64,000 bases of DNA from Candidatus Woesearchaeota archaeon (GCA_018668595.1 JABJCP010000026.1:323-64322); one strand, 5' to 3'; counted from the stretch's first letter, positions 595 through 64,000 are shown. The notes: generated from the letters alone by a model not told the origin. A program made the numbers and translations.

Positions 595-627
595 AGTACG
601 GCCTCTCAAAATTACGGAGCCTTTGGC

Positions 628-730
628 TTTTTTTCTTGCAGAAAAAACGTATAACAAGGATTTAGATATTCCGCCTTGCAGGCTCCATCCAAATTTTTGC
701 TACGCAAAAACTTCTCTTAATCTTAATATT
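628..730. other. Palindromic attC-like intergenic element (degenerate)
   Basis: Hairpins TTTTTTCT-tgc-AGAAAAAA, GCC-ttgca-GGC and TTTTTGC-tac-GCAAAAA. GTATAAC resembles an R'' box, and AAGGATTTAGA pairs imperfectly with TCTTAATCTT. The right-hand GTT box is not intact. Confidence 0.3.
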
Positions 731-783
731 ACTACAGCATACTACTAAAACTTTAAATACTCCTTCAACATCCATATAACACA

Positions 784-1791: not shown

Positions 1792-1816
1792 AAATAGATT
1801 ACTATAAAAACCAAGT

Positions 1817-3124: not shown

Positions 3125-3246
3125 AACTACATAAAAAGTAACGCTTATTTATAAATCTTCCCAATATACTGGGAATTATATGAAATTATCTCCCTGCATA
3201 CTGGGAAGAAAGAAGATAAATAATAAATATGAATAAATTTAAAAAA

Positions 3247-3615
3247 TTAAACGCGTTGTTCTGCAGGCCACCATTGAGCAAATCTAGTTTCGTATTCTTC
3301 AAATTTCTTATCTCTATAAATTTTATCTCTACTCATTCTAAGAACAGACTCTGCCGCTTCATGACAACCAAAACCTGTTACTTTAGATGCAATACTTAAA
3401 CATTTTAAAGTCGCATATCCAAATAAACCTAATTTTAAATCATCCGCCGTTCCATTAGCATTATTTGTCCTGGTTCCAATAAATTGCATTTCTCCTTCAA
3501 AAACAGGCGACTCCCCGTTAATACTACAAGTTTGTTCTATCTTTGATTCTAATAAATCAACATCGCCATCAAAGGATCTGTATTTTGGTTGTTCTTGTTG
3601 AATTTCTTCTGACAT
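3247..3615 (-). CDS. Hypothetical protein
   Basis: ORF. GAGGT RBS precedes ATG at 3615 (MSEEIQQEQ), so the start is moved from the track's 3681. Confidence 0.6.
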   Translation of the reverse strand: MSEEIQQEQPKYRSFDGDVDLLESKIEQTCSINGESPVFEGEMQFIGTRTNNANGTADDLKLGLFGYATLKCLSIASKVTGFGCHEAAESVLRMSRDKIYRDKKFEEYETRFAQWWPAEQRV

Positions 3616-3798
3616 TTTTTTACCTCTTTGAATTTTAATTAAACTAACTAAATAATCAGTATTTACTAATAAATAAATCAAACCCCTTTATAAACCTTTC
3701 GCTTTTTAATCACTCTAAAGTGGTAAAATAGTATTATTCATACACTATCCTAAAGCTTTTTAAAAGCTCAAATTAAACTAAATATTATCAAAAAACAG

Positions 3799-3849
3799 CT
3801 GAGATGCCCTATAAAGGGTTGTTAGACCACTAACTTCAGTCTCGGGAGG
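3799..3849 (+). promoter_or_regulatory. Putative structured 5' leader of rps6e
   Basis: CTGAGA(3799-3804) pairs with TCTCGG(3840-3845) and encloses hairpins CCCT-ataa-AGGG and GTTAG-acca-CTAAC. The closing stem abuts the GGAGG Shine-Dalgarno. Confidence 0.3.
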
Positions 3850-3857
3850 AAAATAAA

Positions 3858-4313
3858 ATGGTAGAATTTAAATTAGTACTTTCTGACCCTAAAACAGGGA
3901 AATCTTATCAAAAAGAAGCTAAAGATGACGCTGCAAAGCTATTCATTGGCAAAAAGATAGGCGACAAGATAAAAGGAGAAGTCATTGACCTTACAGGTTA
4001 TGAATTCGAAATCAAAGGCGGTTCTGATGCTAGCGGATTCCCTATGAGATGGGATGTTGATGGAACTGGAAGAAAAAAAATCACCTCTGTTAAAAGCGTA
4101 GGAATATCAAACAAGAAAAAACTTCCTAATAAAAATAAAAAAGGACAAAGAAAAATTTTAGGACTTAGACGAAAAAAAGCAGTTGCTGGTAATACAATCC
4201 ATGAAAAAACTGCTCAAATAAATCTTAAAATAATTACTCAAGGAAAAACACCGCTTGATAAACCTGCAGAACCTGAAGCTCCAGCTGATAAACCTGCCGA
4301 AAAAGCAAAATAA
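3858..4313 (+). CDS. rps6e: 30S ribosomal protein S6e
   Basis: FKLVLSDPKTGKSYQKE, IGKKIGD, GYEFEIKGGSDASGFPMR and GNTI..KTAQINLKI. Confidence 0.96.
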   Translation: MVEFKLVLSDPKTGKSYQKEAKDDAAKLFIGKKIGDKIKGEVIDLTGYEFEIKGGSDASGFPMRWDVDGTGRKKITSVKSVGISNKKKLPNKNKKGQRKILGLRRKKAVAGNTIHEKTAQINLKIITQGKTPLDKPAEPEAPADKPAEKAK

Positions 4314-4491
4314 ACTCCTAAAGCAGAGTAAAACTATAAACTTAATAATTAAATTTTTTATTTTTTCTTAATATTTTTTCTATTCAAAATTATAAATCAC
4401 ATACAAAACAAAAAAGTTTATATTACATTTCAACTTAACGCATTTAATTCTTAAAATAGCTTAATAATAAAAATAAACGAGGTGGTAAATT

Positions 4492-4851
4492 ATGGCTAAA
4501 AGAAAAAAAACAAATACTATCCAGAAAGTTGGAAGTTGGGCTTTTATTATTGGAGTTCTCATTGCAATTATTGCAGGATTCTTTCCATTAAGCCCAGTAC
4601 TAACATCAATTTTAATTGTTCTTGGATTGATTGTTGGATTCTTAAACATTACTGGAACAGAAACTAACCAGTTTTTATTTGCAGCACTAGTATTAGTTGT
4701 CGTTGCAGGTGTTGGAGGAGGATTACTTTCTCAAATACAAACAATTGGTGAAGTTCTCAAAACAATCTTTGCTGGAATGATGACATTTGTCGTTCCTGCT
4801 ACAATCGTTGTTGCACTAAAAGCAGTTTATGTTTTAGCAAAGGACGAATAA
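4492..4851 (+). CDS. Small multi-pass membrane protein, function unknown
   Basis: Four hydrophobic segments; GAGGTGG RBS upstream. Confidence 0.8.
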   Translation: MAKRKKTNTIQKVGSWAFIIGVLIAIIAGFFPLSPVLTSILIVLGLIVGFLNITGTETNQFLFAALVLVVVAGVGGGLLSQIQTIGEVLKTIFAGMMTFVVPATIVVALKAVYVLAKDE

Positions 4852-4929
4852 GAACAAAAATAAAACCAAATAAATTTTTTCTTTTTTATTTATTTTTTTA
4901 AATATTCTATGAACATATCGATTTTCTAA

Positions 4930-5199
4930 TTAACCCATAGGACTTATAGTTGAAAAAATAATTATTAGAATTAAAATTATTGCAAAAAGCAACAATAAAA
5001 AAGAATGCCAATGACTATAAAATAATTGTTTGAAATCCATTTCAATTTTTTCGCCTGCAACAGTATTAATATTACTCTCTTGTATCTTTTTTTCAGACTT
5101 TGGTTTAACAAATTTATTTACTGTTTTCTTTTTTTTACTAGTTGTTTTACTTACAACTTTTTTCTTTTTAGATCCTGTTTTCTTAACCATAACAACCAT
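4930..5199 (-). CDS. Small Lys-rich protein with C-terminal transmembrane helix
   Basis: Basic N-terminus followed by a single hydrophobic C-terminal stretch. Confidence 0.5.
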   Translation of the reverse strand: MVVMVKKTGSKKKKVVSKTTSKKKKTVNKFVKPKSEKKIQESNINTVAGEKIEMDFKQLFYSHWHSFLLLLFAIILILIIIFSTISPMG

Positions 5200-5265
5200 A
5201 AAGTCATAATTGATATTTAAATCTTACTTAATATGAACGAAAAAAAGAAATTTAAAAAAAAACAT

Positions 5266-6357
5266 TTATTTTGAAAATCCAAACCGTCTCAACCAACTTT
5301 GCGCAGTTCCAGGTTCATCAGGCCCAAATTCAGTCGAAACACTCCCACTATAACCTGATCTTTGTTTAGATTCAGGTAACAAATAGGGTGCAGGTCTTCG
5401 AGCATAACTATTCCTAAAACTTTCAAATACATTAACTGCAGTTCCAAGCAAATCTCCTTTCAAACAAAGCTCGTCGCAAAGCATCATTTTTCTATAACCA
5501 ATATCATATAGCCACGCAAGTTCGGATAAATCTGCACAGCTAGGTACTGGTTTGTCCATTACAGATAATAACATTCTAGATCCAACTCCTGCGTCAGGAT
5601 CTTTATTAATAATTAACTTCATTGCATTTAATATGTCGTGTGGTTTGTCTACTTCTACATACATGTCTCCTCGTGCAGCCATTAAATTTAAATTATCACT
5701 TCGCCTAAATTCATTTTGCACATATCTTAATCCTGCTTTCGATTCAATTTTTGCATAAATGTGTGAGTCTCCTACCAACTCTCTAAACTCATCAATATCT
5801 CTTTGCGATTCAACAAATGATAAAAAATATTTATCAAATCCTGCTTTCATTGATTTTTCTATTTTTTCAATTTCATAGTCTAAAAAAATAGGGCCTGTCA
5901 CATTTAGACTAGGATCTCTAATATGTAACGACTCTCCTTCGTAAACCATAAACTCAGGTCCACCATCAAAAATTAAATGTTTTCCATCTACGACACGATC
6001 AAGAACTGCATAATCTTCTCCTGCTTTGAACAAAACTTCCACTGGTGTTTTGACTTCAATTGGATGGTTTAGTGTTAATTCTAAATTAGACTTATCTGCA
6101 TTAACTTCTCTTATTCGCAATTGTCTTCCTTTAAGATCAAAGTACATTGGAACTGCACCCTGAAGTTTTTTTGCTAAAGTCAATTCATTATCTAGTCTAT
6201 CTCCACCAACCATTGCACTGTTCAAACGAATTGCACTTAGTCTTTTATCTAAAGCAAATTGTTCAAAGTGAGGAAAAGTTGGCCACAATGTAACCGACAA
6301 TTCTAAATCTTTGAATCTTTGTTTATTTTTTCGCGCGTTCATTTTTTCCACCACCAT
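5266..6357 (-). CDS. Pyruvate-kinase-like TIM-barrel protein (divergent, no C-terminal regulatory domain)
   Basis: PK-type motifs AIRLNSA, FDLKGRQLRI, YFLSFVE, AKIESK and AARGDM. The canonical ATQMLESM is replaced by GSRMLLSV. Confidence 0.75.
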   Translation of the reverse strand: MVVEKMNARKNKQRFKDLELSVTLWPTFPHFEQFALDKRLSAIRLNSAMVGGDRLDNELTLAKKLQGAVPMYFDLKGRQLRIREVNADKSNLELTLNHPIEVKTPVEVLFKAGEDYAVLDRVVDGKHLIFDGGPEFMVYEGESLHIRDPSLNVTGPIFLDYEIEKIEKSMKAGFDKYFLSFVESQRDIDEFRELVGDSHIYAKIESKAGLRYVQNEFRRSDNLNLMAARGDMYVEVDKPHDILNAMKLIINKDPDAGVGSRMLLSVMDKPVPSCADLSELAWLYDIGYRKMMLCDELCLKGDLLGTAVNVFESFRNSYARRPAPYLLPESKQRSGYSGSVSTEFGPDEPGTAQSWLRRFGFSK

Positions 6358-6360
6358 AGT

Positions 6361-7335
6361 TTAGATTAATGATTTTGCACCTTTTGCTTTTTTCATTCTC
6401 CTCATAATTGATTCTCCTTCTTCTGAATGTCTAATGGAATCTCCCTGACCTTTGTGAATTGTGTAAAGAGATTTCATTACTGTTTCTACTTGTTGTGGTG
6501 TTTGTCTTCCTACTAATTCTTCATGGAAGTAATCAATTCTGTTTGTTTCTTGTGCTAAAATTCCAAAAATTGTGTCGACAACTCGTCCAGCTTCGGGCAG
6601 GATTGAAATTCTTTCTTCGCCTAAAATATTTGACCACTGTTGATATATTTGTCGATCTTTTGCACCTATATTATCACTCCACCCATTTTGATATGGTTTT
6701 CTAATTAAATAAACTGAAAATTTACTCATTAATTCTTCAATTACAGTTTTAGAATTTTTTCTTCCATCTACTTTTGTATATGCCCAATCTTTTGCATGAG
6801 CTTTGTTTACAAAATCATACAATCCTTCGTCGCCGATGTAAATAAAAACAGGATTTATTGCATTTGGCATTTCACAATTGTTTGCAAAGTAAAGTGCAGG
6901 TAGTTCATAACTTTCTTTCATTTGTCCTCCACCATTCCCTTCAATAATTAATTGTTGTAATCTTTTTTTAAGATCTGTTCCGGAGGTAAATGGTCTTACT
7001 TGCAGAGGATATTTATCAGTATAAGCATCACCTACTGCTGCAAAACAAATTTCCATATCTTCGCCTAAGTATTCTTTTCCTTCTAGTTCAAGATAAGGTA
7101 GTTTAGAAAACATTGTCGCTGGCCAATCACCCATGGATCCAGTTACATCACACGCAATTACCAATGGCGATGTGCTTTGAGTAATTACTTTTTTTTCTAA
7201 GAAAGAAGATTTATCTCTGTCTGAACTTACTGCTTGAGAATAACTTCTTCCTACATGCCGATCGTAAGTCTGACGAGCAGATTTAAAACTATGGCCACTC
7301 CAAGGTCCTGGGTTGTAATCTCCTGATTCTGACAT
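6361..7335 (-). CDS. vWA-domain protein
   Basis: MIDAS-like IACDVTGSM, FAAVGD, EGNGGG..ESYEL and FIYIGDE; GGAGG RBS. Confidence 0.75.
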   Translation of the reverse strand: MSESGDYNPGPWSGHSFKSARQTYDRHVGRSYSQAVSSDRDKSSFLEKKVITQSTSPLVIACDVTGSMGDWPATMFSKLPYLELEGKEYLGEDMEICFAAVGDAYTDKYPLQVRPFTSGTDLKKRLQQLIIEGNGGGQMKESYELPALYFANNCEMPNAINPVFIYIGDEGLYDFVNKAHAKDWAYTKVDGRKNSKTVIEELMSKFSVYLIRKPYQNGWSDNIGAKDRQIYQQWSNILGEERISILPEAGRVVDTIFGILAQETNRIDYFHEELVGRQTPQQVETVMKSLYTIHKGQGDSIRHSEEGESIMRRMKKAKGAKSLI

Positions 7336-7426
7336 TTTTATTCCTCCGTGGTTTAACTTATTTTTTGTTTTTTATTTTTAATTTACAATTTTTAATTTTT
7401 TTATTTGTTATATTAATTTTTTTTAC

Positions 7427-8515
7427 TCAAAATCCATCTATTGATTTAAGTTCAGAATATATTCGCCCAAATGAATCTTGTCTCACTTGTTTTATTGTTT
7501 CACACAAATCTTCTTTTTCCCAATTAGGTCTTGAAAGAACATCATAAACTAGTAGTCGTCGTATAAATTTACAAATTGGATCTGGAACACAGTCTGGAAC
7601 TCGTTTAGATTTTACATCTCCGCCTAGCGCATAGATCATAGTCATTCCAAGTGAATAAAAATCTGATTCTGGAAGTAAGGGTTGAGATCTTTTTTGTTCA
7701 GGCGGTGCAAAAAAAGGAGTGTATCCTTTATTCTTAGAACTATTTTGAGGATTTATCATGGATAGTCCATAATCGACGAGAACCACTGTGTGCTTTTCTG
7801 GTTGAACAATAACATTTTGTGGTTTTACATCTCCGTGTACAACTCCATGAAAATGCAAGTACTTCAATATATTTAAAGTTCGTTCTGCTATCCATGCTAC
7901 ATGTTCTGGATCTAGTTTTTTTGTTTTTTTAACGATTTGTTCTAATGTTGGTCCAGGAATATAACTCATAATTAATGCAGGACTTCCATCTTCAAGTTTC
8001 ATAACATCTTTTACTGCAGGTATTCCAAAATGTCTCAAATCCCACATTGCTTTTGCTTCTTCAAATAGAATTTCTGTATCTTGAGGAGAAACAAAATGTC
8101 CATGTTTTATACAAATAGGCGTGTTCAAATGTATGTGTTCTCCTTTGTATGTTTTTCCAAATCCTCCTTCTGCAATCAATTCTGTTACTTTATATTCTCC
8201 GACTATTTTTCCAAGCAAAGTATTTCTGTTTTGATCATATTCTGCTCTTTTATCGTCGTCTAATAAAACTGATTTTGCTGTATTTAAAATTTCAATAATT
8301 CTTTCTTCATTTACTTCTTCATCAACAGAATTAGAATATTCACTCAGTAAAGTATTATACGCTGCTTCAATTACTTCAGATCTTGCTCTCGGACTAACTT
8401 CTAAAATATCGTATAGATTAATTTTCGCAATATCTAAATCAGATTTGATAGCTGATTTAGTCTTTATTTTATTTTCTACTTTTTTCATTTTTGATTTAGT
8501 TTCTTTTTTTTTCAT
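7427..8515 (-). CDS. J-domain-like (HPD-less) / Ser-Thr protein kinase fusion
   Basis: NLYDILEV...IEAAY...AKSVLLDDDKRAEYD is J-like but lacks HPD. Kinase motifs AEGGFGKTY, CIK, HGDVKPQN, DYG, APPE and DFYSLG. Start placed at ATG 8515 (alternative 8488) because the upstream extension is A-rich low complexity. Confidence 0.85.
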   Translation of the reverse strand: MKKKETKSKMKKVENKIKTKSAIKSDLDIAKINLYDILEVSPRARSEVIEAAYNTLLSEYSNSVDEEVNEERIIEILNTAKSVLLDDDKRAEYDQNRNTLLGKIVGEYKVTELIAEGGFGKTYKGEHIHLNTPICIKHGHFVSPQDTEILFEEAKAMWDLRHFGIPAVKDVMKLEDGSPALIMSYIPGPTLEQIVKKTKKLDPEHVAWIAERTLNILKYLHFHGVVHGDVKPQNVIVQPEKHTVVLVDYGLSMINPQNSSKNKGYTPFFAPPEQKRSQPLLPESDFYSLGMTMIYALGGDVKSKRVPDCVPDPICKFIRRLLVYDVLSRPNWEKEDLCETIKQVRQDSFGRIYSELKSIDGF

Positions 8516-8875
8516 TTTTTGTTTTAATTGTTTTTTTATTTGTTTTTTTATTTGTGTACTGTATTTTTTTGTAGCTAAAGCTAATTTTTCCAGATTATCT
8601 AAAAACAATAGTCCCAACAATAGTTCACTAACAATATCGTACTAACAACAGTTTAGTAATTAATTTATCAATTCATAAAGTTTTTTAAAAAAGGTTAAAG
8701 TCGTCGAAAAAACATTTCAGCAGCAAAAAAACTATTTATCCATTATATTTACTATTAGACACGTTAGGAATATATTTGTGATGTATATTTTTAATATACT
8801 ACACGTTTTGTATATTCAATAGCACCCATTAACCCAAAAACTATTTAAACAAAACCAGTTTCCAAAATAAATAAT

Positions 8876-9529
8876 ATGAAAACAGTATTTATTAGTGCAA
8901 AATCAAGTATTGAAAAAATAGAGTTTGATATTAGTAAAATTAAGGATATCAAAAAAATAGGCATCTTAACTACTGTTCAATTTCTCCACGAAATTGGCAA
9001 AATAAAAAATTACTTGACAGAACAAGGGTTTGATCCTATTGAAGGTGGTCAAGTTCTTGGTTGTGAATTTGAAAACGCAAATAAAATAAAAGATCTTGTT
9101 GATGGATTTTTATATATTGGTTCTGGTAATTTTCACCCTATTGGAATCACACTACAGACAACAAAACCTGTTTTTATTTGGCATCCTGGTTCTGATAAAT
9201 TAACAGAAATTGATAAATCTAAAATAGATCAAATTCAAAAAAAGAAAAAAGGAATGTATACTAAGTTTCTCTCGTCAAAAGTAATTGGTGTTTTGGTTTC
9301 AACCAAACCTGGACAATATAATGTTCAAGCAAAACTTGATAAACTAAATAAATTGAAAACAGAATTCCCAAAAAAAGAATTTTATTTTTTCTTGACAAAC
9401 ACGTTTGATTTTAAAGAATTAGATAATTTTAATTTTATAGAATCCTGGATTAATGCTATGTGTCCGAGGATCGCAGAGGATATTAATGTTTTAAATTATT
9501 CTGATCTTGAAACGTTTAATAGCAACTAG
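8876..9529 (+). CDS. dph2: Diphthamide synthesis Dph2-family protein, N-terminally shortened
   Basis: ILTTVQF, GGQVLGC, IGSGNFHP, VLVSTKPGQ and AMCPRIAED. Only 217 aa. Confidence 0.82.
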   Translation: MKTVFISAKSSIEKIEFDISKIKDIKKIGILTTVQFLHEIGKIKNYLTEQGFDPIEGGQVLGCEFENANKIKDLVDGFLYIGSGNFHPIGITLQTTKPVFIWHPGSDKLTEIDKSKIDQIQKKKKGMYTKFLSSKVIGVLVSTKPGQYNVQAKLDKLNKLKTEFPKKEFYFFLTNTFDFKELDNFNFIESWINAMCPRIAEDINVLNYSDLETFNSN

Positions 9530-10239
9530 CTCGATCTTAGCATTTCTGAAATAGTTACAATTTTATATCCTTTATTTTTAATTCCTTTGATCACATAAGG
9601 TAATGCGTTTACTGTTTCTTTTCGAGTTTTTCCACCACCATCGTGAAACAATATTATATCTCCATGTTCTACATTATCTAAAACTTTAGTTATTATTTGT
9701 TCAGAAGATAAACCAAGATAATCTCGACTGTCTAAATTAAAATTGATAACTTGTAGTCCGAGTGATTCGACAATTTTTATTTGCTTCGGAGTTATCAGCC
9801 CATTTGGAGGTCTAAAATATTTTATTTCTGATGTATCAAAGTCATCAATTCCTGAATTTCCCAAAACTGATTTTGAAAGATAGATTTCTTGAATCAATAT
9901 TCTATCCTCAGTATTTGGCATAAATGGATGAGAGTATGTGTGAATTCCAACTTCATGACCTTGCCCTACTACTTGAGAAAAAATCTCTGGTTGAAATTCA
10001 ACATTTTGTCCCAACACAAAAAAAGTAGCTTTCACATTTTCTTCTTGGAGAATATCCAATATTTGTTCTGTGTATGGAGAATTTGGACCATCATCAAATG
10101 TTAGTGCCACACAATCTGAGCACTCACCTTTCCAAACTATTTGTTGCATTGGATTTGCAAAGTAAACAACCAACAATATGATTAGGAAAGACACAGCTGC
10201 CAAAAGCCCAATTAATGTTTTTAGATGTAAATCTCGCAC
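9526..10239 (-). CDS. Polysaccharide deacetylase (NodB homology) with N-terminal membrane anchor
   Basis: VALTFDDGP, ATFFVLG, GIHTYSHP, FRPPNG and IILFHD. Start placed at GTG 10239. Confidence 0.9.
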   Translation of the reverse strand: MRDLHLKTLIGLLAAVSFLIILLVVYFANPMQQIVWKGECSDCVALTFDDGPNSPYTEQILDILQEENVKATFFVLGQNVEFQPEIFSQVVGQGHEVGIHTYSHPFMPNTEDRILIQEIYLSKSVLGNSGIDDFDTSEIKYFRPPNGLITPKQIKIVESLGLQVINFNLDSRDYLGLSSEQIITKVLDNVEHGDIILFHDGGGKTRKETVNALPYVIKGIKNKGYKIVTISEMLRSS

Positions 10240-10469
10240 AACCACAATAATAAGGTAAATATTCACTTGATTTATAAATATTTTAGCTTTTCGCAGAAAA
10301 ACCACCCATTTTACTACTAAATAATGGCTAAAAAAACGAAACATTTATATATAATAAACACACCATATATTACAAGAAGAAGGCAATTTTATCATGATTT
10401 GTTGAGAATCAGTTTATTCAATTTTTTATTAAATTAGAGTTTAGCCACTAGGCTATAAGGCGAGAAAAG

Positions 10470-11060
10470 GTGTTGAGATTGGATGGAAGAAGTACTTATA
10501 CAAAATTAGAAGAACTTGGATTTAAACCAAGTATTATCGAAAAGATTCTTGCAATAGAGGCAGCACACGAAACTAATAGTCTCGCCAATAAATGTAGTAA
10601 AACAAGATCTGAAAATCAAGAAATGATAGCAGAAGCTGATAAATTAGCCGACGAGTATAATGTAGAAGGAAACATAGTTCTTCACGTAAAAGACGAGGAC
10701 TTGCCCGCAATTGATGATTTATTAAAAACAGAGCTTAATCTTAAGCCAGCTGATGACGATAATTGGGGAATTAGAGAAGGAAGTTGTACAAAGTGTCTCG
10801 TCTTTGAAAATCTAGATTATGTACGCGAAGGTCAAAAACCAGGAGTATTTAGAGTTCATTTAAGACCCTCTTACTTAAATCTAGAAGGAAAAGAAAAACA
10901 TGCAACAGTAAAGTTCCAATACTGGGATCAAAGAATTAACAAAAGGGCATATCAAGAAGATCCAATGCTGCAAGCAATAGACTTAATATTAATTCAAGAC
11001 ATCACACCCACACAAATTACAAACACTGGCGGAGAACCAATTGACAAGTACAATCAATAA
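10470..11060 (+). CDS. Hypothetical protein
   Basis: 196-aa ORF with protein-like composition; AAGGTG just before the TTG start; no motif recognised. Confidence 0.6.
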   Translation: MLRLDGRSTYTKLEELGFKPSIIEKILAIEAAHETNSLANKCSKTRSENQEMIAEADKLADEYNVEGNIVLHVKDEDLPAIDDLLKTELNLKPADDDNWGIREGSCTKCLVFENLDYVREGQKPGVFRVHLRPSYLNLEGKEKHATVKFQYWDQRINKRAYQEDPMLQAIDLILIQDITPTQITNTGGEPIDKYNQ

Positions 11061-16701: not shown

Positions 16702-17061
16702 TTAAGAAGTGGATTCTGAGTGTCCTCTGTCTGTGTGTTTATCTGTATGACCTCTATTAAAATTATCAATATGAATTTCTGAGTGATAAGGTCCCGCACC
16801 ATAATCTTGATACGAACCTCCTTCATCAGTATGTTGATCTCTATGATTATCTGAATGATCATGATGATCATTATATTCAGAATATTCTCTTTTTTGTCGC
16901 CTATTATAATCAGTATGAGGTGCTTTTTCTTTGTAAAAAAACATAAATTTGTCTTTGTTTTCTATTCTTTGTTTTATAACTCGTTTAAGTTTATGATTGG
17001 AAATTTCATTCAAGTCTATTTTATTTCCTTTTATATTTATTAAATTTTTTTCTAAACTCAT
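16702..17061 (-). CDS. Putative RiPP precursor with repeated (H/Y)-x-(D/E) motifs (triceptide-like)
   Basis: Directly downstream of the rSAM gene. GGAGGG RBS lies 11 nt before ATG 17061; the track's GTG at 17070 is an alternative. Helical leader followed by about 13 H/Y-x-D/E triads. Confidence 0.75.
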   Translation of the reverse strand: MSLEKNLINIKGNKIDLNEISNHKLKRVIKQRIENKDKFMFFYKEKAPHTDYNRRQKREYSEYNDHHDHSDNHRDQHTDEGGSYQDYGAGPYHSEIHIDNFNRGHTDKHTDRGHSESTS

Positions 17062-17069
17062 TTTATTCA

Positions 17070-18263
17070 CTACCCTCCAACTTTTGCTTTATCTAATTCC
17101 ACGCCTATTTTTTCTGAAATATGTTTAAATAGAATTTTATAACTAGCACAGTAATAATCTCTGTCCGTTATTCTTCCTCTTCTCATATACGCGTTATGCA
17201 TACAACCAGAATTGCATATTTTTTTATATTCACAAGGTTGACAAACTTTCAAATTATCTGCTCTGTTTTGAAGTTGTTTTCTTTTTGCATTATTAATTAT
17301 TTCTTCCATGCTATTTTCATTAATATTTCCTATTTGAAATTCTTTTACTCCATCAAATCTCCCGCAAGGATAAACATCACCTTGAGGTCCTACCGATATA
17401 AAACTATTTTGACATGATGTTGAATAGTTACAGCCCCAAGGATTTTCTGTTAGTATGTTTCCTATTAGCTCTTCAAACGGATCTAATCTTAAATTATCCG
17501 AATCATAAAACCATTTATCAAATAAGTCCACCATTGCGTTACCATATTCTCTGGGACTTATGCCTAGATCTTCGTAATTTTTACATGCATTTCCTGACTT
17601 AATTAATGGATTAAGTTTCAAATTTATATCTTCTTTTTTAGCAAATTCATATATTTTAGTCAAGTGGTTTATGTTGAGTTTATTAACGACAACAATAGCT
17701 CCACCTCCAACTTTTCTTTTTTTTGCTTTTTTGATACCTCTTAAAATTTTTTTAAATGCGCTCTCATTATTTTTGAAATATCTGGTTTTGTCATTAATTT
17801 CTTTTGGACCATCTAAACTAAACCCTATATCAAAGTCATACTCTTCACAAAAATCCAAAACAGCATCAGTAATTAAAGTTCCATTAGATTGGAACCCATT
17901 CGTTATAGGGTGATACATTCTTTTCAATCCTTTGCTTTTTTTATCCCCTCCTTTTTTTCTTTCCGCTATTTTATTTATTATTTCAGCAGGAGTTGTTTGT
18001 AAGAAAAATTTTTCTTGTAGTTCTTTTGCGTTTTTGTAAAAATCAAGAGGTATTAGTAAAGGCTCTCCCCCATGCCAAATAAAACTAACACTTTTGTGAG
18101 TAGAAACTGTTTTGAATATTAAATTCTCAAGTGTTTTATTACTCATAACACCTTTTTCTGCATTTGAATCTATATAACAATAATTACAAGATAAGTTACA
18201 TAAATGAGTTGGTTTTACAATAACTGATAATCGCTTAAATGGTTTATAAGATTTTTTATTCAT
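17070..18263 (-). CDS. Radical SAM/SPASM-domain maturase
   Basis: CNLSCNYCY, WHGGEPL, QSNG, FSLDG; SPASM cysteines GCNYSTSC, GDVYPCGRF, C..CEYKKICNSGC and YYC. Confidence 0.92.
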   Translation of the reverse strand: MNKKSYKPFKRLSVIVKPTHLCNLSCNYCYIDSNAEKGVMSNKTLENLIFKTVSTHKSVSFIWHGGEPLLIPLDFYKNAKELQEKFFLQTTPAEIINKIAERKKGGDKKSKGLKRMYHPITNGFQSNGTLITDAVLDFCEEYDFDIGFSLDGPKEINDKTRYFKNNESAFKKILRGIKKAKKRKVGGGAIVVVNKLNINHLTKIYEFAKKEDINLKLNPLIKSGNACKNYEDLGISPREYGNAMVDLFDKWFYDSDNLRLDPFEELIGNILTENPWGCNYSTSCQNSFISVGPQGDVYPCGRFDGVKEFQIGNINENSMEEIINNAKRKQLQNRADNLKVCQPCEYKKICNSGCMHNAYMRRGRITDRDYYCASYKILFKHISEKIGVELDKAKVGG

Positions 18264-56782: not shown

Positions 56783-56872
56783 AAAAAAGTAAACAATTTT
56801 AATAAAAAAATAAGAATAATAGAAAAATATTACAATAATCAAAAATAGTAAATTTTCTTAGGGGTGGTTTGT

Positions 56873-57619
56873 TTGGTAAAAATTGGCATCATTGGTGGTT
56901 CAGGATTAGATGATCCTAAAATTCTTAAAGATTCTAAAGAAGTAGAAATTAAAACTCCTTATGGAGATCCAACATCTGTTTTGACAGAGGGTACAATAAA
57001 CAATGTTAATGTTTTTTTGATTGCAAGACATGGGAAACAACATCAGCATTCTCCTACAAGTGTTAATTATAGAGCAAATATTTGGGCACTTAAAGAAGTT
57101 GGTTGTACTCATATTATTGCAACTACTGCTGTCGGTAGCTTGCGAAAAGAAATTGATCGAGGACATCTTGTTATCATGGATCAGTTTATTGATTTTACTC
57201 GACATAGAAAAGTTACTTTTCATGACACATTTGAAAAGGGTGCAATTCATACTCCTATGGCAAATCCATTCTCTGAAGATCTTAGAAACTTATTAGTCAG
57301 CGGATGCAAATCTTTAAATCTTGATCATCATGAAAAAGGAACAGTAATTACTATTGAAGGTCCTAGATTTTCAACTAAAGCAGAAAGTCGCATGTTTCGT
57401 GCTTGGGGTGCAGATATTATTAACATGTCTATTGCTCCTGAATGTATTCTTGCAAATGAAATTGGAATTCCTTATGCTGCTGTTGCTATGAGTACTGATT
57501 ACGATTGTTGGAAAGAAGATGAAAAACCAGTTACTTGGGATGCAATACTTGAAATTTTTAAAGCAAATGTGGGCAAGGTTACAAAGTTATTATTCGAAGT
57601 TATTCCCAAAGTTAAGTAA
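56873..57619 (+). CDS. mtnP: S-methyl-5'-thioadenosine phosphorylase
   Basis: IGIIGGSG, TPYG, RHG, NYRANIWAL, EGPRFSTKAES and STDYDCW. Start placed at TTG 56873 after GGGGTGG. Confidence 0.93.
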   Translation: MVKIGIIGGSGLDDPKILKDSKEVEIKTPYGDPTSVLTEGTINNVNVFLIARHGKQHQHSPTSVNYRANIWALKEVGCTHIIATTAVGSLRKEIDRGHLVIMDQFIDFTRHRKVTFHDTFEKGAIHTPMANPFSEDLRNLLVSGCKSLNLDHHEKGTVITIEGPRFSTKAESRMFRAWGADIINMSIAPECILANEIGIPYAAVAMSTDYDCWKEDEKPVTWDAILEIFKANVGKVTKLLFEVIPKVK

Positions 57620-57626
57620 ACAACAA

Positions 57627-57805
57627 CATTACTGCCTTGGCATATTAGTTGAACACAAAGTGTTCAATTAATTCAAAACAAAGTTTTGATGAATTCAGCG
57701 ACGAGTAAACCGAGTTGCTGAGTTACGGCAGAAAATGGTCTGATTCATGCAAGACCATTTTCGTTAACTAAAATTCATAGAATTTTATAAACTGCCGCAG
57801 TAATG
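57627..57805. repeat. ~180-bp dispersed multi-hairpin element, copy 3
   Basis: CATTACTGCCTTGGCA...ACTGCCGCAGTAATG; same hairpin order as the other two copies. Confidence 0.9.
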
Positions 57806-57880
57806 CACAAAAAAAAATTATTCAACAATAAATAAAAAGCACAATAAATAATAAAACAAACAAAACAGAGGTAAAATAAA

Positions 57881-58408
57881 ATGTCAATCAAATCAAAAAT
57901 TAGAACAATTCCAAATTATCCTAAAGAAGGAATTATGTTTCGAGATATTACAACACTTCTACAAGATGCTCAAGGTATGCGTCAAGTTATTGACGAGCTT
58001 GTTCAAAGATACATAGACACAAAAATTGATGTGATCTGCGGTATTGAAGCTAGAGGTTTTGTTATGGGTGGAGCTCTTGCTCATCAAATGAATAAAGGTT
58101 TTGTTCCTATTAGAAAAAAAGGTAAACTTCCTGCAGAAACTGTGAGTCAAGAATATGCTCTAGAGTATGGAACTGATACTATAGAAATGCATAAAGATTC
58201 TATTAAACCAGGAGATAATGTTCTTATTGTTGACGACCTACTTGCAACCGGCGGAACTGCTGGTGCTGCTGCAAAACTTGTTGAACAACTAGGTGGCAAA
58301 ATTGTTGAGCTTTCTTTCATTGTCGACTTACCAGATATTGGCGGCAGAAAAAAACTTGAAGCTGCAGGTTACAAAATTTTTGCACTTTGCGAATTTGAAG
58401 GAGATTAG
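57881..58408 (+). CDS. apt: Adenine phosphoribosyltransferase
   Basis: [29 protein letters not shown] and [10 protein letters not shown]. Confidence 0.97.
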
Positions 58409-58439: not shown

Positions 58440-58860
58440 CTTGTAATTTTGATGAACATCAAAAGTCTCTTTTCTATATTTCCCAGTTCTTCAATATTTT
58501 GAAACGTACTGATTTTTTTAAAAAATCAAAGAATATGCTTTAAGTTTCTCAAAGAATAAACGGAAAATGTTATTGTCACCATAACCCCCGTCTGCGTAAA
58601 GAATATTTAGTTTGTAATATCTACTAAGTTTTTTGATCATTAGCTTAACATCTTTTGTATTGTGCCGAGCTTTTTTTTTCAAATTGTACAGCAAAATAAC
58701 ATAACTTTCAATATCGACGAAAAACACCCAATATAATTTACAGTTTTCTTAGGAGAGTTTTATAATGGTCCTATTCAAAACAAAACACATAATTTAATTG
58801 CAAACAAAAATAAATTATAATTTGGCACTATGCACGCAGTGTAGATTTTTACTTAATGAT
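58440..58860 (-). pseudogene. Decayed IS5/IS4-like DDE transposase fragment
   Basis: VFVDIESYVIL...RHNTKD...LYADGGY is typical of DDE_Tnp_1. In-frame stops lie upstream and there is a frameshift at an A-run downstream. Boundaries are approximate. Confidence 0.65.
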
Positions 58861-59165: not shown

Positions 59166-59945
59166 ATGAAAAAAAGAAAAAACATAGAAATTATTGTAAA
59201 ATTAAATAATGCAAGTTCACATCACGTACAAGAATTTGCTATACAGGAATCACTGGGCAACAATCAAAAAGCATTAATAAAATTATCATATGCAACTTCT
59301 TACAAATTCTATGCTAATATGTTTGATAAACCACAACTTGAAGATGATCAAATAGTTGAAAAAACAATTAGAGACATTGTTTCCGAGGCAAATTTTTGGC
59401 AAAATGAAGGACTTGGAAAAACAATTATCCATTTAAATTCACCCAACACCGCATATAATTTGCTAAATAAAGTAGGTAACACAATAAAAGATTATCCATT
59501 TTGGAGCGGATATTTCTTTGCAGAACATTGGGATAATAAAAATGCACTAAAAGTATTTAATAATTTATCAAAAAATAATCCTGTCAATTTGCATTGGCAG
59601 GGAAATTTACTTACAAAAGTCGGACGCTTTAATGAAGCATTAATACCCCTAGTAGAAGTTGCAAAAATGGAACCAAACAGATATAATCATTTTTCACATC
59701 TGGGTAATGCATATCGTGGTCTAGGTATAAAATATGAAGCAAAAATAGCATATAAGAAAGCAATTTCATTAATATTAAACAAAGAAAATATTGGGAGAGT
59801 TGAACATATTCACCTTGTAAGAAGTTATCATGGTCTTTCTCGTTTGGGCTTTAATGAATACCGTTTAGCTGAAGATAAACAGCAAAAAGAAGCAATTCGA
59901 ACTGGAACAGTTAGTAAACATGAACTCGAAAGAATCAAATTTTAA
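59166..59945 (+). CDS. TPR-repeat protein
   Basis: HWQGNLLTKVGRFNEAL...AKMEPN..HFSHLGNAYRGLG..EAKIAYKKA. Confidence 0.8.
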   Translation: MKKRKNIEIIVKLNNASSHHVQEFAIQESLGNNQKALIKLSYATSYKFYANMFDKPQLEDDQIVEKTIRDIVSEANFWQNEGLGKTIIHLNSPNTAYNLLNKVGNTIKDYPFWSGYFFAEHWDNKNALKVFNNLSKNNPVNLHWQGNLLTKVGRFNEALIPLVEVAKMEPNRYNHFSHLGNAYRGLGIKYEAKIAYKKAISLILNKENIGRVEHIHLVRSYHGLSRLGFNEYRLAEDKQQKEAIRTGTVSKHELERIKF

Positions 59946-59956
59946 TAGGCTAAAAA

Positions 59957-61108
59957 ATGACAAAAAATGAAGAATTACTTAATAATACAATCAGAACCTG
60001 TAATACTGGCACTATCAGCATAACTGCTAAAGTGACAAAAAGATGCAATATCAGACCTGCTTGTGAATATTGTTATGATTTCGAGGCACAATCCGATAAT
60101 AAGGAGTTCGATATGTCTACCCAGACACTTGACAATTTAATAAAAAAATCAGTAGGAAGCGGTGATTTTAATAGAGTTATTTTTGTATGGCACGGTGGTG
60201 AACCATTGGTTGTAGGGAAAAAGTTTTATCAAAAAGCACTTGAATTTCAGGATAAATACAATTCGGGAAAAGTTATTATCGAAAATCGATTGCAGACAAA
60301 TGCTGTTGCAATGGATAGAGCATGGATTAATTTTTTAAAAACTCATAATTTCAAGATGGAATCCAGCTTTGATGCATTTGATAATGATAAATCAAGAGGG
60401 AAGTCTCAACAAGTATTAAGGAATCTTTTGCTTGCAAAAGACATGGATTATGCTCCAGGAAATGTTATGTTTATTGTAACAAAAAGAAATGTTAATAGAC
60501 TTAAGGAAGCGTATGATTATTTCAATAAAAGGGAACTTAATTTCACACCTTCACCAATTATTTCGCTTGGTCAAGCATGTCAATATAAAGAATTATCTAT
60601 CACTCCAGAAGAATATGGTCATTCTGTAGTTGACCTCATGGATTACATTTTAAAGCAGCCAAAACCAAAGATCAAAGTACGTTTTATCGACGCTGTACTT
60701 CGATCAGTTCTAGGTTTTGAACAGAATTTATGTAGTCACGGTTTTTGTGCGTATCAATTTATTGCCAGCGAGTCAAGTGGTGAAATTTATCCCTGTGCAA
60801 AAGTAGATCAACCTGAATGGAGCTTTGGAAATATTAATGAACTTGACAAATTGTCAGACATTTTTTCAACAGAAAAATATAGAAAATATGGAACTGCAGC
60901 CACTAATAGATTAACTGATTGCCTAACTGAAAATAGCGGCAAACCCTGCGAAGTTTTTCAACATTGTAAAGGAGGTTGTGCGAGTAACTCACTTGCCGCA
61001 GGTGGATACTCAAAAAGAGATTTTTATTGTACAGCCTATAGAATCGTATTTAATCACGCTCTTAATGTTAGAGCTGAGTTATTAAAACAATTAAATAACG
61101 GAGGATAA
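59957..61108 (+). CDS. Radical SAM/SPASM-domain maturase (CX5CX2C variant)
   Basis: CNIRPACEYCY, WHGGEPL, QTNA; SPASM LCSHGFC, GEIYPC, HCKGGC and FYC. Confidence 0.92.
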   Translation: MTKNEELLNNTIRTCNTGTISITAKVTKRCNIRPACEYCYDFEAQSDNKEFDMSTQTLDNLIKKSVGSGDFNRVIFVWHGGEPLVVGKKFYQKALEFQDKYNSGKVIIENRLQTNAVAMDRAWINFLKTHNFKMESSFDAFDNDKSRGKSQQVLRNLLLAKDMDYAPGNVMFIVTKRNVNRLKEAYDYFNKRELNFTPSPIISLGQACQYKELSITPEEYGHSVVDLMDYILKQPKPKIKVRFIDAVLRSVLGFEQNLCSHGFCAYQFIASESSGEIYPCAKVDQPEWSFGNINELDKLSDIFSTEKYRKYGTAATNRLTDCLTENSGKPCEVFQHCKGGCASNSLAAGGYSKRDFYCTAYRIVFNHALNVRAELLKQLNNGG

Positions 61109-61110
61109 AA

Positions 61111-61296
61111 ATGGAAAAAATAAAAAAAGATTTGGATAAAATAGTAAAAGAAGCTAAGAAAGATTCAGCAGTACTGGAAAAATTAAATTTACCCAAACAC
61201 ATCAAATCGATTATAACTGAAGAAGCAGGATACAACCCCGCAAAGATAGGCGGCTATAAATCAGAAGGTAAGTGTGATCACCAGTATCACAATTAA
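61111..61296 (+). CDS. Putative RiPP precursor peptide
   Basis: 61 aa with a GGAGG RBS, directly after the rSAM gene. Helical leader followed by a Gly/Tyr/His-rich C-terminus (AGYNPAKIGGYKSEGKCDHQYHN). Confidence 0.7.
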   Translation: MEKIKKDLDKIVKEAKKDSAVLEKLNLPKHIKSIITEEAGYNPAKIGGYKSEGKCDHQYHN

Positions 61297-61328
61297 TTTT
61301 TTTTACTTTTTTTTGAGGAATTCAATAA

Positions 61329-62240
61329 ATGGAAATTATATATACTGCATCACCCTATGAAACATATCACGAAGAGATTAATAAAATGCCAAGTGTTTCT
61401 GGCATGCGATTAAATACCATATCTCAAATTAGTGAACCTTTAACTAATTTAATTTCTAGATTAGATTCTAAAATTGGAGAGAACAAACTTTGGATAGATC
61501 TTAAAGGGAGACAATTAAGAATCATTGATAAAAAAAGAACACCTTATCACATTGAACTGACATTAAACCACAAATTAACAGCAGATTTACCATTAAAAGT
61601 TGAGTTTAATACAGGAACATTAAAGGGTAGGATTACCCATGCATATGAGGATAAAGCAATATTGCTTGATTGTAAGTGGGATGATATTCGTGCAGGACAA
61701 TCTTTAAATATTACTCACCCAAGTCTTAAAGTTGAAAAATACCTGAGCCCTAGTTGTGAATTGTATATAAAAGCCGCAAAGAAATGTGGTGTTCATAATT
61801 ATATGTTATCATTTGCGGAAGAAGAATCAGATGTAAGTGATGTACTTGCTATTGATTCCGCAGCAAAGATATATGCAAAAATTGAAACAAAAAGAGGTGT
61901 TGATAATTTTGTTGAAAATGTATTCCCTAAATATAAAGATAGTATTCGGTTAATCGCTGCACGAGGAGATTTATTATTACATCTTAATTCAGCACATGAT
62001 TTAGATGATACATTAACAAAAATCATCAAATTTGATTCTAATGCAATTTTAGCTTCACGTCTTCTTGCAACCTCAAAAGAAAAAATTAGTTCACAAGATA
62101 TGTCCGATTTATTTTATATCCTGCGCGATCTTAAATATCAATCATTTCTTATTGGAGATGGAGTTAGTTTATTCAAACCCTCACTTATAAGAGCAATTAA
62201 CGCTCTTAATACTGTAAATTCAAAGGTTAATGAAAAGTGA
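61329..62240 (+). CDS. Pyruvate-kinase-like TIM-barrel protein (homologue of 5266..6357)
   Basis: MRLNT, IDLKGRQLRI, LTLNH, MLSFAE, AKIETK, AARGDL and ASRLL. Confidence 0.75.
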   Translation: MEIIYTASPYETYHEEINKMPSVSGMRLNTISQISEPLTNLISRLDSKIGENKLWIDLKGRQLRIIDKKRTPYHIELTLNHKLTADLPLKVEFNTGTLKGRITHAYEDKAILLDCKWDDIRAGQSLNITHPSLKVEKYLSPSCELYIKAAKKCGVHNYMLSFAEEESDVSDVLAIDSAAKIYAKIETKRGVDNFVENVFPKYKDSIRLIAARGDLLLHLNSAHDLDDTLTKIIKFDSNAILASRLLATSKEKISSQDMSDLFYILRDLKYQSFLIGDGVSLFKPSLIRAINALNTVNSKVNEK

Positions 62241-63334
62241 AAGCGAAATTACCTCAAATTAATTTATTGATGTCAGTTACAGGAAAGTGTAATCTTGCTT
62301 GCTCTTATTGTTACGTTAATAAAAAATCAGATGTTAATATGCCTGAAAATCTATTAGAAAATATTACAAAAAAAGCTTTGAATGAATTTAAAAAAGTGAT
62401 TTTCATTTGGCATGGAACGGAACCAACTATGCGTGGCATTGACTTTTTCAAATCCGCAGTTGAATTTCAAAAAAAATATTCTTTCAACAATGAAATTGAA
62501 AATCAGATTCAAACTAACCTTACTCTTTTTGATAAAAACTGGATTAAGTTTGCAAAAGATTCTGGTTTTATGGTTAACTTTTCGTATGATGGTAAGAATG
62601 CAAATGAATTAACACGACCCGGATCAACTAAGCAAATATTTAATAATCTGTCTTTATTACAAGCTGAAGGAATTTTTCCTTCATGTAATGTCGTTATTAG
62701 TCAAACAAATATTAATAATTTAATTGACATCAATAATGAATTAACAAAAGAGCATAATGTTTCGTTTTATATGAATCCTGCATATAATTATCATAATAAG
62801 AAAACATCTATATTTATTCCAGCAGAAAAATATGCTGAAGCAGTGAATAATATGTTTAATTATTGGTTCAATGATCAAAATGCTTCTAACACTGCACAAA
62901 ATAAATTATGTCAAAGTCTATTGACAAGCATACTTAGAATTAAAGGTGTAGAGAATGGAAAATATGTTGCACAACCCGCAAGCAGCTATAACAAATGTAC
63001 ATTTAATCATTGTTATGGCAAATTTTTAGGCGTGTTAGAAAATGGTTTGGTTTACCCCTGCGATAACTTTATTTCAGAAAAATCGTGCCTGGGTCATGTT
63101 TCTAGTGTTGAAAATTTGAGTGATTTTTTTAGAAAAGATGAGTTTAACAATTTAATTAGAAGTTACCATAAGACTAATGAAGAATGTATGCAGATATGTA
63201 AATGGTACCAGTTATGTAATTCAGGTTGCCCAAGTCACACTCGCGGTAAGAGAAAAGATCCATTGTGCAGGGCATATCAAAAAATATTTTCAAACGTTAA
63301 ATCAATTGTTGACAATAAAATTTTTGGAAAATGA
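62237..63334 (+). CDS. Radical SAM/SPASM-domain maturase
   Basis: CNLACSYCY, WHGTEP, QTN, FSYDG; SPASM KCTFNHC, GLVYPC, ICKWYQLCNSGCP and LC. GTGA overlap with the upstream gene. Confidence 0.9.
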   Translation: MKAKLPQINLLMSVTGKCNLACSYCYVNKKSDVNMPENLLENITKKALNEFKKVIFIWHGTEPTMRGIDFFKSAVEFQKKYSFNNEIENQIQTNLTLFDKNWIKFAKDSGFMVNFSYDGKNANELTRPGSTKQIFNNLSLLQAEGIFPSCNVVISQTNINNLIDINNELTKEHNVSFYMNPAYNYHNKKTSIFIPAEKYAEAVNNMFNYWFNDQNASNTAQNKLCQSLLTSILRIKGVENGKYVAQPASSYNKCTFNHCYGKFLGVLENGLVYPCDNFISEKSCLGHVSSVENLSDFFRKDEFNNLIRSYHKTNEECMQICKWYQLCNSGCPSHTRGKRKDPLCRAYQKIFSNVKSIVDNKIFGK

Positions 63335-64000
63335 AATTAAATAAAATTGCTAAAGGATACAATCTTGGAAAAGTAATCTCTTCCAACGAAATAATTGGAG
63401 GATATAATAGTCGCAACTATGATCTTTTAACTTCAAAAGGACATTTTTTTATTAGAAAATTTGTTAGCCACAGACAAAAAGATCAAATCAAATTGGAACT
63501 AAATTTTTTAGATTATTTAAAAAATGAAAGGTTCCCCTGTGTTCCTGCATTAAGGACGACCGAGGGCGATCTTTATCTAAATACCCTCGAGGGTAATTTT
63601 GCTTTGTTTGAATGGCAAGCTTCAGAACCGTATGATAATCAATTAGAATCTACCGCGCTTTGCTTATCACAATTACATAAATTATCTACTAATTATAAAA
63701 GAATTGTTAGCGGTCGTGATTGCCTAGATAAATGTTTTGATAATGATATTGATTGTGCAAAAAAAATTCTTTCAGGGAATGATATTATCCACCAAAGCAA
63801 TTTACCGATTTGTCATCCGCTAAAAAACAAAGAGCTATTTAAAATAAATGAAATAAATAAAATAAATATAAGGAGACTGTTTAAAGAATATTTTAACAAT
63901 TTTATTGTACCAAAAGCAAATGAATATTCAAAAATTGTTTCTTTATTTGAGTATAGTAGTTTTAATAAACCAATTATACATGGCGATTTCATTGCAAGAA
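63331..64000 (+). CDS. Aminoglycoside/homoserine-kinase-type phosphotransferase (3' end outside window)
   Basis: ATGA overlap with the rSAM gene. Open to the window end: GGYNSRNY, FFIRK, E..FLDYL, FALFEW, LSQLH and IIHGDF. Confidence 0.85.
   Translation, partial: MKLNKIAKGYNLGKVISSNEIIGGYNSRNYDLLTSKGHFFIRKFVSHRQKDQIKLELNFLDYLKNERFPCVPALRTTEGDLYLNTLEGNFALFEWQASEPYDNQLESTALCLSQLHKLSTNYKRIVSGRDCLDKCFDNDIDCAKKILSGNDIIHQSNLPICHPLKNKELFKINEINKINIRRLFKEYFNNFIVPKANEYSKIVSLFEYSSFNKPIIHGDFIAR

Follow-up and report, generated by a model that had tools for sequence, protein, structure and literature searches.

A TPR protein, a radical SAM enzyme and a small peptide ending in Tyr-His-Asn form an apparently undescribed conserved trio in archaeal gene clusters

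What is a peptide of 61 amino acids (aa) doing between two radical S-adenosylmethionine (rSAM) enzymes in an archaeon? The question is raised by a stretch of 64,000 nucleotides from Candidatus Woesearchaeota archaeon (GCA_018668595.1, JABJCP010000026.1:323-64322), which we call the window and analyzed whole, positions 1-64000. The cluster at its end (59166-64000) encodes, in this order, a tetratricopeptide repeat (TPR) protein, an rSAM enzyme with a SPASM domain (rSAM1), the small peptide, a short pyruvate-kinase-like (PK-like) protein, a second rSAM/SPASM enzyme (rSAM2), and a kinase of the APH family. Pairs of rSAM/SPASM enzymes and peptides are a known kind of system; to our knowledge, specialized peptide chemistry has rarely been reported from DPANN archaea. 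A sequence-only reading had proposed that all six genes make up one pathway for a peptide that is ribosomally synthesized and then modified after translation (RiPP). What we find is a system that is real, rare and apparently undescribed, with a core that is smaller (three genes) and a local cluster that is larger (four rSAM genes) than first thought.

The layout of the cluster is as the sequence-only reading described it. An open reading frame (ORF) listing together with family scans puts six ORFs on the plus strand, all in the same direction and packed close: the first three intergenic gaps measure 11, 2 and 32 bp, and at the last two junctions the genes overlap by 4 bp (ATGA). The peptide ORF (61111-61296, plus strand) also has the ribosome-binding site of its own that had been reported for it, a GGAGGA box 8 nt 5′ of the ATG.

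Which of these genes belong together? Homologs of rSAM1 (383 aa, 59957-61108, plus strand, with Radical_SAM and SPASM domain model matches) are few: among 5.8 billion clustered proteins we find only 12 close ones, at 52-63% identity, and the next match drops to 29%. Alignment scans with rSAM1 report 2 loci in species-representative genomes and 4 in JGI metagenomes. For the TPR protein (259 aa, 59166-59945, plus strand, weak matches to TPR_1, TPR_2 and TPR_8), an exhaustive HMMER search of 1.84 billion representatives reports only 7 full-length relatives, and the remaining matches are generic TPR similarity at residues 130-205. When the neighborhoods are compared, a TPR orthologue of about 250 aa precedes that of rSAM1 wherever sequence 5′ of it is available, so that the TPR gene keeps the place in the system that it had been given. 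Just 3′ of the rSAM1 orthologue, again in every related locus with sequence, there is a small ORF; at one locus (L018/L019) one gene intervenes. The trio is complete at L009, L010, L011, L012/L015 and L020/L021, the loci with sequence available; contig ends truncate the loci L017, L018/L019 and L022, yet the peptide is present there.

These small ORFs provide the strongest signal. There are nine distinct peptides, of 53-136 aa, divergent in sequence and from loci that span 29-58% GC, and all nine end exactly in Tyr-His-Asn (YHN) followed by a stop codon. In the window peptide the three residues are Tyr59, His60 and Asn61, encoded at 61285-61293, and the C-terminus reads ...GKCDHQYHN. The other eight end in ...EGCDFKYHN (L022), ...SNSHDWYHN (L011, a 53-aa peptide), ...RRDDYSYHN (L018, a 70-aa peptide), ...PDDDQHYHN (L020), ...SDDDTNYHN (L012), ...SKDDESYHN (L010), ...NDNAGDYHN (L009), and ...NDNIGDYHN (L017). 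An Asp precedes the tail Tyr by 1-3 residues, and a second conserved Tyr stands 12-20 residues upstream of it. Outside the tail, length and sequence are free to differ from one peptide to the next, and there is almost no conservation across the family. Given the local amino-acid composition, the chance of YHN at one C-terminus is about 6e-5, and finding it at the end of all nine small ORFs implies that the 61-aa ORF, for which no Pfam, NCBIfam or PADLOC model reports a match, is a real gene, and one that by its features is precursor-like.

Whether the 61-aa ORF is conserved beside homologous rSAM genes was one point on which the RiPP proposal could have failed, and the ORF is conserved. Of the C-terminal motifs that had been pointed out in the peptide (YNP, YKS and HQYHN), the terminal YHN is the conserved one. 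The six-gene pathway itself survives in part: peptide, rSAM1 and TPR gene are conserved together, and the PK-like and APH genes are found with the peptide at two loci only. As the homologous loci have it, the conserved unit is the TPR protein, rSAM1 and the YHN peptide, and only these.

Two of the loci have features of their own. The gene that intervenes at L018/L019 (1463-3016), in a genome with 58% GC, encodes a 517-aa aconitase-family protein (Pfam E = 2e-103) and stands between the rSAM1 orthologue and the 70-aa peptide. The most divergent YHN module, at L011 (JGI Ga0180009_10008118, 1-10500), consists of TPR protein, rSAM1, 53-aa peptide and rSAM2, and its contig looks like that of a virus: directly 3′ of the module there is a ClpP-type head maturation protease (phrog_2976, E = 1e-15), a 357-aa protein that matches phrog_7293 (E = 2e-80) is also found on that side, and the contig starts with a dCMP-deaminase-like gene. 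In this version, the module seems to have a viral carrier. A search of IMG/VR reported no copy of the TPR partner, and the rSAM relatives there have at most 32% identity.

How might the trio work? On balance, we lean towards a three-gene peptide-modification module, formed by a TPR partner, an rSAM1 that resembles the anaerobic sulfatase-maturating enzymes (anSMEs), and a ribosomally made precursor with a YHN end. That rSAM1 acts on the YHN peptide is the part of this proposal in which we have good confidence. The enzyme would abstract a hydrogen from the YHN tail and then cross-link the tail. The likeliest link would join a ring carbon of Tyr to the β-carbon of Asn, which would give a cyclophane spanning three residues, as in triceptides, with aromatic-x-Asn as its motif. 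We favor this link over others because YHN fits the rule of an aromatic residue at position i and a partner at i+2, and because the second-best curated match of both rSAM enzymes is the DynA family (NF041298, 189 bits for rSAM1 and 152 bits for rSAM2, against a cutoff of 450 bits). As a statement of the exact chemistry, the Tyr-Asn carbon-carbon bond is a tentative one, drawn by analogy.

The analogy can be examined against the systems that are known. In triceptides, Trp or Phe is linked to the β-carbon of an Asn at i+2, and C3 of Tyr to the β-carbon of Asp or Arg; the maturase of dynobactin, named DynE in that review, links Trp to the β-carbon of Asn and His to the β-carbon of Tyr (PMC11002830). 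Thus Asn is a known i+2 partner and Tyr a known ring donor, each with other residues at the opposite end (PMC11002830). The YHN system shares with the triceptides (XncB/XyeB, OscB/GrrM, MscB/FxsB, YxdB, YhhB, HaaB) an rSAM/SPASM enzyme adjacent to a short precursor, and a conserved aromatic-x-x motif, which in our case is YHN in nine peptides. It differs from them in that triceptide motifs are internal and often repeated, whereas here there is a single motif at the extreme C-terminus, a dedicated TPR partner, archaeal hosts, and scores that miss the curated maturase cutoffs widely. With DynA/DarE the likeness lies in that second-best match and in the dynobactin links, to the β-carbon of Asn and between His and Tyr, which involve the same types of residues as YHN; unlike our system, DynA/DarE belong to gammaproteobacterial antibiotic clusters with unrelated precursors and no TPR partner, and rSAM1 stays far from their cutoff. 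By analogy, this is a system that works like a triceptide or a darobactin-class rSAM RiPP system, and yet it is in no defined family. Full-text literature searches found no description of an rSAM-TPR-YHN system.

What is distinctive in the trio is a recognition motif fixed at a free C-terminus, a TPR partner in place of the usual RiPP recognition element (RRE), and a home in small archaeal genomes of low GC content. It may reveal a new Tyr-x-Asn cross-link, and also a new mode of substrate presentation for an rSAM enzyme.

The second of these possibilities concerns the TPR protein. Its family has the invariant motifs FW..Y..AE.W.N, HW.GNL..K, P..YNH.SHLG and, at the C-terminus, ELERI.F; many invariant aromatic and His residues are kept, and the conservation is strong beyond the positions that are generic for TPRs. 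No curated NCBIfam, Pfam or PADLOC model captures the family. An AlphaFold2 model (pLDDT 94) is all-alpha, a TPR superhelix of 14 helices, and its Foldseek neighbors are TPR superhelices, which include the binders of C-terminal tails Tom71, PEX5 and Trip8b, with modest scores (E about 3e-4 to 3e-3, TM 0.45-0.49). TPRs of the PEX5 and Hop types bind C-terminal peptides. We propose, by this analogy, that the TPR protein may be a receptor or chaperone for the C-terminal tail of the peptide. Since no RRE is present, it is probably the TPR protein that holds the C-terminal tail, or else the leader, for the enzyme; it would replace the usual RRE/PqqD domain and hold the free tail.

To this core, the operon in this genome and in its nearest relative would have added rSAM2, the PK-like phosphotransferase and the APH-type kinase. 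The enzyme rSAM2 (365 aa, 62237-63334, plus strand, Radical_SAM and SPASM) is a distant paralogue of rSAM1, 26% identical to it. Orthologues of rSAM2 adjoin YHN peptides in L022 (57% identity) and in L011 (33% identity), and all three keep the residue equivalent to Asp277 of the anSMEs. We observe that each of the three peptides associated with an rSAM2 (window, L022, L011) has a Cys 5-10 residues before its end, and that four of the six peptides without a neighboring rSAM2 have no Cys. We therefore propose, from these sequences, a second site on the peptide, possibly the Cys, on which rSAM2 may act; it may form a thioether there, or oxidize the Cys as an anSME does.

The PK-like protein (303 aa, 61329-62240, plus strand, PK barrel E = 6e-5) has a GAGGA ribosome-binding box in front of it and belongs to a family of proteins of about 300 aa that is widespread in DPANN, CPR and Asgard metagenome-assembled genomes (MAGs). 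Residues 4-335 of E. coli PykF are covered by the family profile (E = 3.5e-19). The cluster protein consists of the A and B domains and ends where the A domain ends, so that, in contrast with pyruvate kinase, the C-terminal regulatory domain is absent, and it belongs to a separate short DPANN/CPR/Asgard family. The copy in the cluster misses the cutoffs of both Pfam PF00224 (22.7 vs. 30 bits) and TIGR01064 (34.9 vs. 306 bits). What the family shares with pyruvate kinase, besides that alignment, is a set of motifs. Every family member, the cluster copy included, keeps the residues of RLN, DLKGRQLR, KIE and ARGD, and likewise R27, N29, D57, K59, K184, E186, R212 and D214, all aligned with PykF; we take these to be the catalytic residues of the pyruvate kinase A domain (Arg/Asn, DxKG, K-I-E and A-R-G-D).

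The last gene in the window encodes the APH-family kinase (63331-64000, plus strand), 223 aa of which lie in the window before its end cuts the gene. The full protein matches the Pfam APH family with E = 3e-14 and has an intact HGD motif; type II homoserine kinase and CotS are the models that come nearest, with scores far below their cutoffs, and its match in the PDB is the homoserine kinase 2PPQ (E = 6e-7). The two phosphotransferases would probably phosphorylate a hydroxyl of the peptide, that of the conserved Tyr, or else the released product. We also considered for the kinase a role like the one that APH-type kinases have in class V lanthipeptides, which we do not favor because no Ser or Thr is conserved between the peptides of the window and L022. 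The lineage-specific gain of two phosphotransferases and three rSAM enzymes makes a natural series in which to study stepwise tailoring.

There are several observations that weigh against the proposal of a cross-linking peptide pathway, in whole or in part. The chemistry is one that we infer from sequence, and a Tyr-x-Asn cyclophane is absent from the links described in the review cited above (PMC11002830). For the curated cyclophane families, the scores stay far under the cutoffs: rSAM1 has 82 bits against a cutoff of 445 for YhhB, 70 against 310 for GrrM/OscB, 68 against 370 for FxsB, and 54 against 450 for XyeB, and for these families and AmcB together the range is 54-82 against 310-450 bits. 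The tail-receptor role of the TPR protein is proposed from an analogy of fold (Foldseek E about 3e-4). Among the precursors, several reach 95-136 aa and contain charged stretches that look like coiled coils; such features are uncommon in RiPP leaders and point instead to a small protein that is modified. Family scans of the window and of its continuation report no protease or exporter gene in the cluster, and as a consequence an RiPP natural product is not the sole possible reading. As for the tailoring enzymes, the rSAM2 of L011 does not have the equivalent of Cys276, and the L010 peptide has a Cys even though it has no neighboring rSAM2. The PK-like and APH genes accompany the peptide only in the window and in L022, and are missing from the other YHN loci; moreover, the window and L022 are fairly close relatives, and compact genomes pack unrelated genes tightly.

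This last point leads to the alternative that survives best, and that is compatible with the peptide-modification module. The PK-like and APH genes may be unrelated housekeeping genes in the operon of a compact genome, with the TPR protein, rSAM1, the peptide and perhaps rSAM2 as the only genes that belong together. We give this a real, if clearly minority, share of the probability. The PK-like family is widespread and usually has other neighbors, namely a vWA-like gene, whose product has a DVTGSMG motif, and frequently a gene for a DnaJ-Ser/Thr kinase, without rSAM genes; for the same reason we rejected the idea that the PK-like gene marks the system. Such a module of PK-like, vWA-like (about 300 aa) and often DnaJ-Ser/Thr kinase genes is found in DPANN and CPR at L006, L007, L008 and L025, and also inside the window at 5266-8620 on the minus strand; at two of the module loci an adenylosuccinate-synthetase-like gene is a neighbor. 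On the other side, it is the second PK-like paralogue of the window (5266-6357, minus strand) that keeps the usual vWA-like and kinase neighbors, so that the copy in the cluster is an extra and diverged one, recruited there. In addition, L022 has its genes in the order peptide, PK-like, rSAM2, APH as well, at 50-57% amino-acid identity (50% for the PK-like protein), with its stop/start overlaps kept and the start of the APH orthologue, in the same position, overlapping the rSAM2 stop.

A different alternative, to which we assign a lower probability, concerns what the YHN ORFs are. They could be small functional proteins to which rSAM1 adds a permanent C-terminal cap, a cross-link or a metal site, with no cleavage or export. 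The lengths of up to 136 aa, with long, charged and probably helical stretches, are what one would expect in that case, N-terminal motifs are conserved inside subgroups, the tail region is rich in His, Asp and Tyr and could bind a metal, and the absence of a protease or a transporter from the window cluster poses no difficulty. Against it, the members of 53-61 aa are little more than a leader-like helix and a tail, and a body that is almost unconserved across the family speaks against a common protein function.

Somewhat less probable again is that the YHN tail supplies the material of a small molecule, in the manner of the mycofactocin and PQQ pathways, being modified, cut off, and processed by enzymes of metabolic types. 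In such a scheme, rSAM1 would cross-link or oxidize the tail with the TPR protein as a chaperone, and the PK-like protein, the APH kinase and the aconitase-family dehydratase of L018 would process the tripeptide. An invariant motif at the extreme C-terminus, with the rest of the peptide free to vary, is the pattern also seen in MftA, which has a fixed C-terminal motif and a variable remainder. Accessory genes here encode enzymes of the kind that acts on small molecules rather than peptide tailoring enzymes, the 517-aa gene between rSAM1 and peptide at L018/L019 being one more of them, and the cluster has no exporter. With the mycofactocin and PQQ systems (MftA/B/C, PqqA/D/E) there are in common an rSAM/SPASM enzyme, a separate helper that binds the peptide, and invariant residues at or near the precursor C-terminus. 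But the helper here is a TPR protein and not an RRE/PqqD, the last residue is Asn and not Tyr, and the match to the mycofactocin rSAM (MftC) model is weak, with 33 bits where the cutoff is 265. We see no peptidase conserved with the module, nor the downstream oxidases, flavoenzyme or glycosyltransferase that are typical of known cofactor pathways. The accessory enzymes are not the same ones at the different loci, and are absent from most of them, which makes a shared multi-step pathway unlikely. One can go a step further and imagine YHN as the building block of a new peptide-derived cofactor or signal of genome-reduced archaea, with the TPR protein as a tail clamp standing in for the RRE and lineage-specific enzymes processing the product; this is improbable, slightly more so than the general form of the small-molecule proposal.

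We return to the peptide-modification module and to its enzyme, for which an assignment at family level can be attempted. The rSAM1 family profile aligns full-length with the anSME of Clostridium perfringens, anSMEcpe (4K36, E = 1.7e-42), and in a MAFFT alignment all 11 (3+4+4) Fe-S cysteines of anSMEcpe are present in rSAM1 and in the rSAM2 of the window. We take Cys15/19/22 of anSMEcpe to bind its radical SAM cluster, Cys255/261/276/330 and Cys317/320/326/348 to bind its two auxiliary [4Fe-4S] clusters, and Asp277, beside Cys276, to be its proposed catalytic base. At the position of Asp277, all 13 members of the rSAM1 family have an Ala. In 12 of the 13 the radical SAM cluster motif is CX5CX2C (CNIRPACEYC, rSAM1 residues 30-39) and not CX3CX2C, the canonical form, which is found in a single member (P0130/L009). 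The top curated match for both enzymes in the window is the anSME family TIGR03942, with 199.8 bits for rSAM1 and 162.2 bits for rSAM2 against a cutoff of 349.45; in NCBIfam the sactipeptide, ranthipeptide, cyclophane and cofactor families all score well under anSME and DynA. Below every curated cutoff, rSAM1 is a full SPASM enzyme of undefined family. A dependence of the RiPP proposal on the rSAM enzymes not clustering with sulfatase maturases was foreseen from the start, and rSAM1, by its score and its Ala, is no sulfatase maturase.

That both SPASM enzymes are sulfatase maturases, or other dehydrogenases, with a small molecule or some unlinked protein as substrate and the 61-aa ORF incidental, is very improbable despite the top curated match, the closest solved structure being an anSME and the Asp277 equivalent kept in rSAM2, as the scores (200 and 162 bits) are far from the cutoff (349), rSAM1 has its invariant Ala, the substrate motif is without Cys or Ser, the YHN ORF is kept with rSAM1 in every locus, and no sulfatase gene is found among the neighbors inspected at any locus, a result that covers the neighborhoods and leaves the whole genomes unsearched.

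Outside the rSAM1 family there are two loci of related enzymes with small ORFs. The nearest rSAM1 outgroup, with 29% identity, is in an Aenigmatarchaeota MAG (L024, 3842-5895), without the TPR partner and without a YHN ORF. There the rSAM gene is followed by an overlapping 67-aa ORF that contains Cys, and then by the gene of a protein of 222 aa whose match to C39 peptidases is very weak; an rSAM with a small ORF in this position implies that the association with peptides may extend into neighboring clades. Inside the window, a third anSME-like rSAM/SPASM gene (17070-18263, minus strand, 397 aa) is 30% identical to rSAM1. The start of a 122-aa ORF (16702-17070, minus strand), rich in His, Asp and Tyr and with four HTD motifs, abuts its stop, and the two (16702-18263) look like a second, distinct rSAM-peptide pair.

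How far does the cluster extend? The sequence-only reading saw it continue past the end of the window and counted two rSAM genes. It does continue, on a 25.9-kb metagenomic contig (L001) that is identical in sequence, and the count has to be raised to four. The APH kinase is 349 aa long (8913-9962 on L001), an rSAM3 of 397 aa overlaps the end of its gene, and an rSAM4 of 388 aa is convergent to rSAM3; the two are paralogues, 35% identical, and their matches to known families are confined to the N-terminal rSAM core. Beyond rSAM4 there are a lipoprotein-like gene of 547 aa and a metallophosphoesterase gene, both of which look unrelated to the cluster. A reading of the locus as a defense system was tried and rejected, as PADLOC reported only generic N-terminal matches of rSAM2, rSAM3 and rSAM4 to viperin models.

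The host assignment is in agreement with the sequence. Near the cluster there are archaeal marker genes (L21e, SepF, ZPR1, TYW3), the GC content is 29%, and the names attached to the homologs are Aenigmatarchaeota, Nanoarchaeota and Woesearchaeota, all of which is consistent with a placement in DPANN. Across the 64-kb window, neither ARAGORN, for tRNA genes, nor Rfam, at gathering score, reports a feature.

On its upstream side, the cluster is bounded by the decayed insertion sequence that had been recognized directly before it. What is left there of an IS5-family transposase gene is a fragment (58518-58745, minus strand), in which the frame that contains the ORF 58518-58727 matches positions 145-206 of the 289 of NF033579 (E = 2.2e-5) and is interrupted by stops at either side; it is a boundary and no working part of the system. 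Just upstream of it, at 56864-58408 on the plus strand, there are a gene of the purine/methylthioadenosine phosphorylase family and a gene of the phosphoribosyltransferase family, probably a methylthioadenosine phosphorylase and an adenine phosphoribosyltransferase. rSAM enzymes release 5′-deoxyadenosine, which this pair could recycle, an idea suggested by adjacency only.

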